From a virus (taxonomy: Duplodnaviria; Heunggongvirae; Uroviricota; Caudoviricetes), in the IMG/VR virus record IMGVR_UViG_2778261214_000006: a DNA stretch of 5,968 nucleotides. The stretch is one strand, 5' to 3'. Below the pieces are notes generated by a model. It saw only the letters and a program-made list of their open reading frames with translations, was not told the DNA's origin and did not search any database. Made by a program: the position numbers and the translations under genes. Shown piece after piece: positions 3,710 to 5,968 of the stretch. Positions within the stretch are counted from its first letter, which is position 1; each line of letters opens with the position of its first letter.

Positions 3710-4669
3710 TTAAAAAAAGAAGGTGATTGCTCCATTTATAAATGAATAGTCATCCCCTGTCTTGAATTCTGATGTTACTTTATTAAATGCTAGTGTGAAG
3801 GCTACAGGTGCATACCCAATTGTTGCGCCAACTTGATATTCATCAACAGTTTTGTTTAGCGATACTGTTGTTTGTTTCGTCTGTATTGTTTTTCCTTCGA
3901 GAGTATAGTTGCGATTGACATCTCGTCTTTCCATACCTGCAAAAATCTTGTATTTGAATCCGCTTGTATCGGACATATGCATTAAACCACGGGGAGCCAG
4001 CAGACCAAAGCCATTATCCGAATTGAAGGTTTTATCATTACCAATGGCAATGGTTGCGCCATATGCTACATATTGAAATAAGTTTCCAGTAACAGCAGAA
4101 ACTTCAGGGTATAATCCAACATTAGCACCTAAAATATCCATACTTGGTGTCATGGATAGCATCCCTTTTACAGTATAACCGTAGCGATTCTCTATTTGAT
4201 CATCCCATGCATGATATTTTTCTGCCCCAATAATCTCATGAGCTTTATTTTGTACTTTCTGACCGCCTGCGTCGGGGCCAACAACACCTATGTCAGTACC
4301 TAATCGATAGCGAATCCAGTCATTCGCAAGGGAGTTCCATTCAATACCAGTGTGAGTGTATGCACTAAAAGCTCTGTCTCCAGTTACAGCTGTGTTGTGT
4401 CTTTTATTACTGCCTGATGGAGAGTAAATATCTTGCGCAATATGGAGAGATAATTGGCTCGAGTCTGAGATATCGTGGCTATATCCCAGAAATAAGCCTT
4501 GTGAGTAATCATCTCTGTTTTCATGTTTATTGCCATAAATATCATTAAGTATTGGTTGAAACTTCCCTGCATCATCATTTGCTAATGATAATGCAAGGCT
4601 GTTCGCGATAGCTGAACACGTGGTAAATGACAGAGCAATAAAGACGCCAGCGATGACACTTTTTTTCAT
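3710..4669 (-). CDS. lpxR: Outer-membrane beta-barrel protein, LpxR-like lipid A 3'-O-deacylase (accessory/moron gene)
   Basis: 319-aa ORF on the minus strand. The N-terminal Sec signal MKKSVIAGVFIALSFTTCSAIA ends in an AxA cleavage motif, and the C-terminus ...NGAITFFF is the aromatic terminal signature of outer-membrane beta-barrels. The predicted mature N-terminus NSLALSLANDD places Asn-Asp at positions 9-10, matching my recollection of the LpxR catalytic N-terminus. SD AGGAAG lies 10 nt upstream of the ATG. The gene and flanks are visibly more AT-rich than the nin genes. Confidence 0.7.
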   Translation of the reverse strand: MKKSVIAGVFIALSFTTCSAIANSLALSLANDDAGKFQPILNDIYGNKHENRDDYSQGLFLGYSHDISDSSQLSLHIAQDIYSPSGSNKRHNTAVTGDRAFSAYTHTGIEWNSLANDWIRYRLGTDIGVVGPDAGGQKVQNKAHEIIGAEKYHAWDDQIENRYGYTVKGMLSMTPSMDILGANVGLYPEVSAVTGNLFQYVAYGATIAIGNDKTFNSDNGFGLLAPRGLMHMSDTSGFKYKIFAGMERRDVNRNYTLEGKTIQTKQTTVSLNKTVDEYQVGATIGYAPVAFTLAFNKVTSEFKTGDDYSFINGAITFFF

Positions 4670-5144
4670 ATGTTATTGTCTTCCTTTTTTTTGAATGGTG
4701 CGCGTATTTTACATACATGAGTTTGTAATACAAGGTGCGTAATCAATATGATGTTTTATAATTGCGTGAGACAATTGATTTATTCGTTTTTTATTGCGGT
4801 TTTTATTATCTTTTAATGTAACGGTGTTTTTATTAAGTGTGTTTGTGTGGTGTTTTATGTTTTTTATAATTTTTATTTTATTAAATTTAAAAGCATTAGT
4901 AATGGCTATTCTATATAGCAATATAAGAACTGTTACAAAAAAAGGGGGGGCAATTACAGGTAGTTATGGATGATGAGTGAAACAGATATTGGAGAACCGG
5001 GGAATGAATGATGTCTGAGTCTTATATATCAGAACTCCTTCGCTGTCGCTGGGGGCTCCTGTGCTTATGTCGTTTCCCCGATTCGGTTTTGAACGATTAC
5101 CGAATGTTGAAGAATTATGCCAAAATATAGAAAGGATTTACTGC
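4670..5144. promoter_or_regulatory. AT-rich divergent intergenic region: expected lpxR promoter/5' leader and upstream region of the replacement Q
   Basis: Roughly 475 bp without a convincing ORF; 4690-4930 is extremely AT-rich with many T-runs. It must contain the promoter for the minus-strand gene that starts at 4669. No individual -35/-10 pair could be assigned confidently by eye. Confidence 0.4.
4937..4950. repeat. Abutting homopolymer tracts A7 then G7
   Basis: AAAAAAAGGGGGGG read directly at 4937-4950 in the intergenic region. A T8 tract also lies at 4685-4692, just upstream of the lpxR-like SD on the minus strand. Confidence 0.5.
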
Positions 5145-5834
5145 ATGAATACCCAATATTTACAGTATGTTCGTGAGCAACTTATGGCAGCTACTGCTGA
5201 CTTGAACGGAGCAACGAAAGGCCAGCTCGAAGCCTGGCAGGAGCATGCACAATTTGATACTGGTACATACAAACGAAAGAAGCCGCGCATTCTGGATGTG
5301 GTAACTGGCAAGATGATTACGCTGGATAATACGCCGACTTCCGGTAAGCAGTCGTACGCAAAAGGTTCATCCATTGCTTTGGTCAGCCCGGTTGAATTCT
5401 CAACCTCTTCATGGCGCCGCGCGGTTTTGTCTCTCGATGAACATCAGAAAGCATGGTTGCTTTGGTGTTACAGCGAAAGCGTTCGATGGGGGCATCAGGT
5501 CACCATAACGCAATGGGCATGGAGCGAGTTTAAAGATTTGTTAAGTAACAGAAAAATTGCAGGTAAGACACTGGATCGCCTGAAGACGTTAATCTGGCTG
5601 GCTGCACAGGATGTGAAGAGCGAACTTGCAGGGCGTGAGGCCTATGAATACCAGACACTGGCATCATTGGTGGGAGTGACAACAAAAAACTGGTCCGAGA
5701 CATTTACTGAACGCTGGGTTGCAATGAAGCACATTTTTCTACAGCTTGATAGTGATGCTTTATTGCTTGTGACGAGAACACGTTCAAAACAAAAGGCAGC
5801 ATTTTTACAGCAAAATATTGCAAAACTGGATTAA
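5145..5834 (+). CDS. Late-gene antitermination protein Q of the non-lambda (QuuQ/82-like) family
   Basis: 229-aa ORF from ATG 5145, with AAAGGA 8 nt upstream. The ORF track extends to GTG 5061, but that start lacks an SD. The product (MNTQYLQYVREQL...EFSTSSWRRAVLSL...WLLWCY...TQWAWSEF...LQQNIAKLD) resembles Qin-prophage QuuQ-type Q proteins as I recall them and lacks the Cys4 zinc finger of lambda Q. A strong promoter and terminator lie immediately downstream, as expected for Q. Confidence 0.65.
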   Translation: MNTQYLQYVREQLMAATADLNGATKGQLEAWQEHAQFDTGTYKRKKPRILDVVTGKMITLDNTPTSGKQSYAKGSSIALVSPVEFSTSSWRRAVLSLDEHQKAWLLWCYSESVRWGHQVTITQWAWSEFKDLLSNRKIAGKTLDRLKTLIWLAAQDVKSELAGREAYEYQTLASLVGVTTKNWSETFTERWVAMKHIFLQLDSDALLLVTRTRSKQKAAFLQQNIAKLD

Positions 5835-5846
5835 AAGCCATATACT
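5818..5846 (+). promoter_or_regulatory. pR'-like late promoter (sigma70)
   Basis: TTGCAA (5818-5823), a 17-nt spacer, then TATACT (5841-5846): a near-consensus -35/-10 pair overlapping the last codons of Q. The predicted start site is near 5853. Confidence 0.55.
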
Positions 5847-5857
5847 TCATGCAAATT

Positions 5858-5866
5858 TGGTATGTT
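5858..5866 (+). promoter_or_regulatory. Extended -10-like element in the initially transcribed region (candidate sigma-dependent pause / Q-engagement site)
   Basis: TGgTATGTT at 5858-5866, i.e. TGn followed by a -10-like hexamer at about +9 to +14 of the predicted pR' transcript. In lambdoid late promoters such elements hold sigma70 to create the pause at which Q loads. Confidence 0.35.
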
Positions 5867-5882
5867 GTAAAAAATGTATAAA

Positions 5883-5906
5883 CCCGCTGCCGAGTGGGTT
5901 TTTTTT
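5883..5906 (+). terminator. Rho-independent terminator (tR'-like), about 30-50 nt downstream of the predicted pR' start
   Basis: Stem CCCGCT (5883-5888) / AGTGGG (5893-5898, with one G-U pair) around a GCCG tetraloop, followed by T8 (5899-5906). Confidence 0.6.
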
Positions 5907-5968
5907 ATGCCCTGAGTTGTACTTGTACGGTAAACATGCTGGCTGCTATGTAATAGAGTTTTTTTAGC

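Follow-up and report, generated by a model that had tools for sequence, protein, structure and literature searches.

A predicted late-operon control unit of the phage 82 family, with a compact leader, at the end of the Q gene of a lambdoid prophage

At the 3' end of a predicted Q antiterminator gene, within a 5,968-nucleotide stretch of DNA from a virus of the class Caudoviricetes (this entire stretch is referred to as the window), a promoter-like sequence, an extended -10-like motif and a hairpin followed by a run of T residues are packed into about 90 bp. This arrangement raises the question of whether the three motifs together form a Q-dependent late-operon switch and, if so, to which of the known types of switch they belong. 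The explanation that best accounts for the results is that the locus is the late-operon control unit (late promoter pR', Q-utilisation site and terminator tR') of a lambdoid prophage with a phage 82-family Q, a reading that is assigned a probability of roughly 85%.

The genomic context of the motifs is that of the nin-Q region of a lambdoid prophage, with gene order ninB, a KilAC/Rha-type antirepressor gene, ybcO, rusA, ninH, an lpxR-family gene on the minus strand, a ylcG-like ORF and the 229-aa Q, and the window matches prophages of E. coli O26:H11 and relatives at 99.8%. The sequence of phage 434 (GenBank OL657226) is 100% identical to window positions 5100-5968, whereas the upstream parts differ, the window carrying ybcO-rusA-ninH where phage 434 has ninG-ninI and a lambda-Q fragment. 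Phage 434 is a viable phage. In phage 434 and in E. coli EDL933 the late operon continues 3' of the terminator with a membrane-protein gene, a DUF3927 gene, holin, endolysin and spanin genes, and then terminase.

The identity of the Q protein bears directly on the type of switch. The Q gene, identified from the list of open reading frames and a Pfam match, occupies positions 5145-5834 on the plus strand (229 aa and a stop codon), and its product matches PF06323 (Phage_antiter_Q), i.e. the Q82 family, over its full length with E = 1.1e-91, being identical to phage 82 Q at 203 of 229 residues (89%). Q82 (PF06323) is one of three Q families that are unrelated in sequence, the others being Q lambda (PF03589) and Q21 (PF06530), and the Q82 family is structurally uncharacterised (PMC9388147). 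A sequence search of the PDB with the window Q likewise found no solved relative.

All of the motifs proposed by an earlier reading of the sequence alone (hereafter the sequence-only reading) were present at the positions given for them, and a consensus scan recovered the same promoter and the same terminator. The -35 hexamer of the late promoter, TTGCAA (5818-5823, plus strand), lies inside the last Q codons, and it is followed by a 17-nt spacer, AACTGGATTAAAAGCCA (5824-5840, plus strand), into which the Q stop codon TAA (5832-5834) falls and which, from sequence comparison, is the probable Q-binding element (QBE). The -10 hexamer is TATACT (5841-5846, plus strand). This promoter had been described as near-consensus, which holds as to its presence but overstates its strength of match, as it agrees with the consensus at 9 of 12 positions overall and at 4 of 6 in the -35. 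Transcription is predicted to start on the plus strand at A5853, in the AAA at 5853-5855, which is 7 nt past the -10 and is the position expected from homology. With this residue as +1, the putative sigma-70-dependent pause element, the extended -10-like TGgTATGTT (that is, TGGTATGTT; 5858-5866, plus strand), which is assigned by homology, spans +6 to +14, with the TG at +6/+7 and the hexamer TATGTT at +9 to +14, about where the sequence-only reading had placed the pause element.

Downstream, scanning and folding both delineate an intrinsic terminator, the presumptive tR' (5880-5906, plus strand), composed of a hairpin at 5880-5901 and eight U residues encoded at 5899-5906. The hairpin has 9 bp, a G/C core at 5883-5898 and a GCCG loop, and corresponds to +28 to +49, with the T tract at +47 to +54, such that transcript release is predicted near +53 to +55. 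The predicted leader RNA terminated in the absence of Q would consequently extend from 5853 to 5906 on the plus strand, as given by the start and the terminator, and would be about 54 nt long; the idea of a very short unmodified transcript is thereby upheld, with its length of about 50 nt revised to approximately 53-55 nt. Folding of the transcript segment +1 to +56 gives -15.3 kcal/mol (z = -3.6 relative to shuffled sequences), and folding of the hairpin alone -12.0 kcal/mol. A second, tandem terminator was sought in the remaining stretch, 5905-5968, and none was found, this stretch folding worse than its shuffles.

Motifs of these kinds are common in DNA, and taken singly each of them is unremarkable in frequency: the window contains 7 promoter-like sites (12.1 expected), 5 terminator-like sites (5.8 expected) and 14 occurrences of TGNTANNNT (13.9 expected). 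Such frequencies would allow the hairpin merely to end the early operon that includes Q, with the promoter-like and pause-like motifs arising by chance, and the phage 434 record, in which Q is annotated as 'Q82-like', is in keeping with this, as it places a terminator at what corresponds to window positions 5883-5908 but annotates neither a promoter nor a pause element. The joint arrangement is nevertheless rare. Among 3000 simulated first-order Markov windows, only 5 had the complete unit on either strand in the required order and spacing, the search having called for a promoter together with a -10-like element extended by TG (at +2 to +10) and a terminator (within +15 to +80). The real unit additionally sits exactly at the Q stop codon. 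Further, the -35, the -10, the pause element and their exact spacing are conserved among relatives in which Q identity falls to as low as 33% and the terminators differ, and there is homology between this leader and one whose features agree with 82 pR' as characterised by experiment. A chance origin of the motifs therefore appears very improbable.

To establish the corresponding leader of phage 82 itself, an indirect route was taken, as the phage 82 record (X92588) ends at the Q stop codon and the 82-type leader was identified from relatives. A sample of 80 viral contigs with 87-100% Q identity yielded 34 distinct leaders, and two loci encoding a Q that agrees with phage 82 Q at 229 of 229 residues carry TTGCAA-AACTGGATTAAAAAGCA-TATATT-TCATAT-AAATCTGATATTTTGCCAATGTTGTA. 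The 82 pR' characterised by Bird et al. begins with AAA, which causes initiation stuttering; has a -10-like pause element nearer to consensus than that of lambda and with an extended -10; carries GCC at +15 to +17, G at +24, U at +25 and a G at -11 from the pause, with no G at +26; and pauses polymerase at +25/+26 in a sigma-70-dependent manner (PMC5001585). The leader behind the 82-identical Q fits all of the sequence features in this published description (PMC5001585).

Compared with this 82-type leader, the window is identical at 6/6 positions of the -35, 15/17 of the spacer, 5/6 of the -10, 12/15 from +1 to +15, 6/11 from +16 to +26 (with TGTA at +23 to +26 the same) and 8/28 from +27 to +54. 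Overall, 42 of the 50 positions between the -35 and +15 are identical, and the homology stops after +26. The two share the same -35, the AAA start, the TG-extended element at +6 to +14, G at +15 and U at +25, and differ in the -10-like hexamer, which is TATGTT in the window and TATTTT in the 82-type. This homology across the promoter, spacer and pause element, together with the family membership of Q, argues that assignment to the 82-type rather than the lambda-type was correct. The predicted pause positions in the window, inferred from 82 pR', are accordingly +25 (U) and +26 (5877-5878, plus strand).

Conservation among the relatives follows the same elements. The -35 TTGCAA is unchanged in 34/34 distinct Q82-type leaders and in 28/28 aligned leaders of a second, compact kind (see below), whereas the -10 varies, being TATATT in 82-type alleles and TATGCT in a few variants. 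AAAT at the start is conserved in 82-type and 434-type alleles, and the TG, the TA and the final T of the pause-like element are kept in nearly all distinct leaders. The -10 and -10-like hexamers are 14 nt apart in the window as in all relatives, and this spacing is conserved along with the TG-extended element in Enterobacter and Klebsiella phages. Among the sampled leaders there are a few natural variants in which the hairpin is weakened (L047 and L128) or the -10 is weakened to TATGCT (L010).

The sequence TGgTATGTT could in principle be a separate extended -10 promoter producing a second, shorter transcript from about 5873, as a TGn followed by TATGTT fits the extended -10 class. Extended -10 promoters can function without a -35. 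This possibility is nonetheless extremely improbable, given that the homologous element of 82 pR' has been shown experimentally to be a sigma-70-dependent pause signal (PMC5001585) and that its conserved, invariant separation of 14 nt from the real -10 is as expected of a pause element recognised by the initiating sigma factor.

With TGgTATGTT taken as a pause element of the 82 type, the principal departure from 82 pR' lies immediately beyond it, where positions +15 to +17 are GTA in the window and GCC in 82 pR', only the G at +15 being kept. In 82 pR' the pause half-life falls by a factor of about two with an A substituted at either +16 or +17, and by a factor of about five with the triple substitution (PMC5001585). 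The pause in the window allele may thus be weaker, shorter-lived or shifted, with GCC at +15 to +17 being a quantitative modifier that does not decide Q82-type membership.

The position of the terminator is a second departure, and here the sequence-only reading did not stand, as it had taken a terminator beginning near +30 to be the geometry of phage 82. In the 82-type leader the hairpin spans +50 to +76 and the U tract extends to about +78, compared with a hairpin at +28 to +49 and U residues to +54 in the window, making the window leader approximately 25 nt shorter, and the window terminator arm begins three nucleotides beyond the predicted pause site. A blastn match to phage Flotzy led to a second clade of the Q82 family in which a terminator at this position is usual. 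The Q of this clade belongs to PF06323 and is 33% identical to that of the window, and 55 contigs provided 28 distinct compact leaders that align with the window almost without gaps. These leaders share with the window the -35, the 14-nt separation of the -10-like hexamer from the -10, and the element TGaTAnnTT. The pause element occupies the same position at the same spacing throughout, as TGaTATTTT in the 82-type, TGaTATGTT in the Flotzy-type and TGgTATGTT in the window. Further, 27 of the 28 have T at +25, and 26 of the 28 have a hairpin whose first position lies within +28 to +30; the U tract ends at +50 to +55, and 16 different hairpins are represented. Judged from these alignments, the compact leader is the layout of the Flotzy-like clade and not that of phage 82. 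A search of the literature found no experimental study of Flotzy-like compact leaders.

The similarity to Flotzy is confined to part of the unit. The window and Flotzy are identical at 29 of 35 positions from +1 to +35 and at 23 of 28 from +27 to +54, and at only 6 of 17 in the promoter spacer, the presumed QBE. Wells et al. placed the QBE between the -35 and the -10, and the 82 QBE within -31 to +30 (PMC4914094). That the spacer co-varies with Q and the pause element does not is as expected of a QBE and of a signal recognised by sigma-70, respectively. The unit as a whole looks like a mosaic, in which an 82-type Q and QBE are combined with a compact leader of the Flotzy type. In SfV and 2B8, Q genes of the lambda family are also followed by the terminator cassette and the sequence beyond it (5881-5968). 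SfV shares the terminator cassette only, and has a lambda-family Q and the lambda-like element AACGATGGG in its leader. The occurrence of the cassette behind another Q family indicates a module boundary directly after the pause site.

The conserved -35 could have an additional layer of function, as a CII-activated antisense promoter analogous to paQ, for which a CII-type activator would bind TTGC-N6-TTGC on the minus strand at 5810-5823, giving rise to an anti-Q RNA and occluding the pR' -35. The minus strand contains a perfect TTGCAATATTTTGC, which is annotated in phage 434 as a CII site with a paQ -35. In 82-type and 434-type alleles the two TTGC repeats are preserved, and the N6 between them varies non-synonymously. 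However, one of the repeats is the -35 and the other is coding sequence, which suffices to explain their conservation, and 0.52 such sites are expected per window, with at least one present in 80 of 200 shuffles. Many sites of this kind are annotated in the phage 434 record, solely on the basis of their pattern. ENT1, KO-TP1 and the Flotzy clade lack the site, and, by comparison with the pRE geometry, the minus strand has no suitably spaced -10. Such a second role for the -35 is decidedly improbable.

For the late-operon control unit itself, the start site, the pause position, the binding of Q to the spacer and the readthrough are inferred by homology, and on this basis its operation would be as follows. 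From the promoter TTGCAA-17-TATACT, which overlaps the 3' end of Q, sigma-70 holoenzyme would initiate at A5853, and sigma-70 retained on the early elongation complex would rebind TGgTATGTT at +6 to +14. The polymerase would then scrunch forward and pause at approximately +25/+26 (5877-5878). Without Q, the complex would be expected to escape and then terminate at the hairpin and U8 (5880-5906), releasing the RNA of about 54 nt. With Q present, Q bound to the spacer (5824-5840) and assisted by NusA would engage the paused polymerase, and the modified, termination-resistant polymerase would read into the lysis and morphogenesis genes.

If this cycle operates as predicted, lysogens should constantly make the RNA of about 54 nt, including the carriers of such prophages among O157, O26, O111 and O103 strains. 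The 103-nt unit was found at a coverage of at least 80% in 623 of 5426 complete E. coli genomes, in 611 of them at an identity of at least 99%, and its carriers include O157:H7 EDL933, O26:H11, O111:H8 and O103:H2. The RNA belongs to a class of transcripts that is regulatory in Stx phages, in which the pR'-tR' RNA binds Hfq and regulates host genes, and antiterminated phage promoters have been proposed as a general source of sRNAs (PMC7547250). A possible extension of the control-unit reading, compatible with it, is that the leader also acts in trans as a constitutive prophage sRNA in the manner of StxS, in which case an RNA with this role would be present in approximately 11% of complete E. 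coli genomes, including major EHEC serotypes. Features of the predicted RNA that speak for such a function are a single-stranded, A/U-rich 5' part, the terminator hairpin and a tail of eight U residues, and the unit is widespread in the E. coli genomes as counted above. On the other hand, the RNA matches no Rfam family at threshold, and +16 to +27 varies freely in related compact leaders, with no conserved seed apparent, such that a role in trans is considered unlikely. The sole overlapping match in a permissive Rfam scan was STnc240, at 28.2 bits (E = 0.46) compared with a gathering threshold of 55 bits; STnc240 is a core-genome sRNA located between yeeY and yoeI, and its differing context marks this as a chance match.

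The short layout might also be selected in its own right, whether as a constitutive prophage sRNA or as a consequence of Q82 modification having to be complete within approximately 25-30 nt of the loading site, although on the present comparisons this is doubtful. Were the limit on modification to be the correct explanation, the leader would serve as a natural probe of how the Q82 family shields nascent RNA. The hairpins themselves differ mainly by one-sided changes (G.U to G-C) when compared by eye, with no strong covariation among the compact leaders. An RNAalifold consensus of the 16 compact-leader hairpins had only 3 pairs and was uninformative, the MAFFT alignment having put out of phase hairpins whose register differs by 1-2 nt.

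For the most part these results confirm textbook biology, and the late promoter, the Q-utilisation site and tR', none of which is annotated in RefSeq E. coli genomes, can safely be annotated at this locus. While the kind of element is well established, the window allele itself appears never to have been studied, and full-text literature searches for leader sequences found no paper that prints the window leader. Its interest, besides that of a possible source of a constitutive prophage RNA, lies in being a natural allele of the best-studied sigma-70-dependent pause, with GTA in place of GCC and a terminator that abuts the pause site, and hence a ready-made test both of the published rules for pause strength and of the speed at which Q82-type modification takes effect.

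Set beside the known systems, the unit follows the same logic as lambda pR'/qut/tR', phage 21 pR' and StxS, i.e. a constitutive late promoter, a sigma-70 pause that loads Q, and Q-dependent readthrough of a terminator. A lambda-type qut was considered and rejected, as the window Q belongs to PF06323 and not to PF03589 and the leader does not contain AACGATGGG, a lambda-type qut having an AACGAT-GGG pause element at +1 to +9. Lambda carries AACGAT at +1 to +6 and pauses at +16/+17, as opposed to the +25/+26 predicted for the window, and the leader is 194 nt long (6S RNA) in lambda and 258 nt in Stx phages, compared with about 54 nt here. Short late-promoter RNAs have been cited for phages 21, phi80, 82 and P22 (PMC7547250), and the RNA predicted from the window would be analogous to these and to lambda 6S RNA.

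The leader downstream of Q, the gene for the late antiterminator, and the Q gene itself evidently do not always travel as one unit. The compact 434-type leader is paired with Q proteins that match that of phage 82 at as many as 221/229 residues; in this leader the terminator hairpin starts at +28 (L049-L051, among others), whereas genes encoding a Q identical to that of phage 82 are followed by the long 82-type leader, with its hairpin at +50 to +76 (L061/L063). The two leader types have evidently been swapped between closely related Q genes. The terminator cassette and the sequence that follows it (window 5881-5968) are also common to phages with an unrelated lambda-family Q (PF03589), recurring at 1501-1560 in the SfV locus (L086) and at 1501-1584 in the 2B8 locus (L085), and the mosaic joint of this cassette lies directly 3' of the pause site. 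The SfV leader carries a lambda-like AACGATGGG pause element and is as short as that of the window.

Within the 434-type loci, the U tract of the terminator tR' (window 5899-5906) was found as T7 in 12 cases, T8 in 32 and T9 in two, a variation that could tune basal readthrough. In some 82-type leaders downstream of Q (L052, L053, L073-L075 and L080), the 82-type sequence is lost after +26 and there is no terminator-like site up to +100, so their tR' must be located beyond that stretch or belong to a different type. A minus-strand TTGC-N6-TTGC site (TTGCAATATTTTGC, 5810-5823) overlaps the final Q codons and the -35 element of the late promoter pR'. This site is a perfect match to the lambda CII-site consensus, and the phage 434 record labels it as both a CII site and the paQ -35, but the motif alone is at chance level (0.52 expected). 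Both TTGC repeats are retained across 82-type and 434-type alleles, with a variable N6; the motif is missing from more distant relatives.

Upstream of the nin genes, a strong terminator-like hairpin on the plus strand (AGGCCTGC...GCAGGCCT, then TTTTATTT; 194-217; 8 bp with six G-C pairs) is a possible tR-type terminator for the early right operon. An A7G7 homopolymer pair at 4937-4950 lies in the intergenic DNA that separates minus-strand lpxR from plus-strand ylcG/Q. Its length differs even between loci that are almost the same elsewhere (22 have A7G7, 15 A7G6, five A7G8, two A6G6 and one A8G6), which could reflect either slippage-prone regulation or sequencing error. The lpxR-family gene (3710-4669, minus strand), encoding an outer-membrane lipid A deacylase, has been inserted as a moron immediately before ylcG/Q and is flanked by AT-rich sequence at 4670-4960. 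In the window the lpxR cassette is placed after ybcO-rusA-ninH, whereas in phage 434 and EDL933 it follows a truncated lambda-type Q fragment, and these differing neighbours suggest that the cassette and the Q82-type module travelled together, replacing a lambda-type Q.
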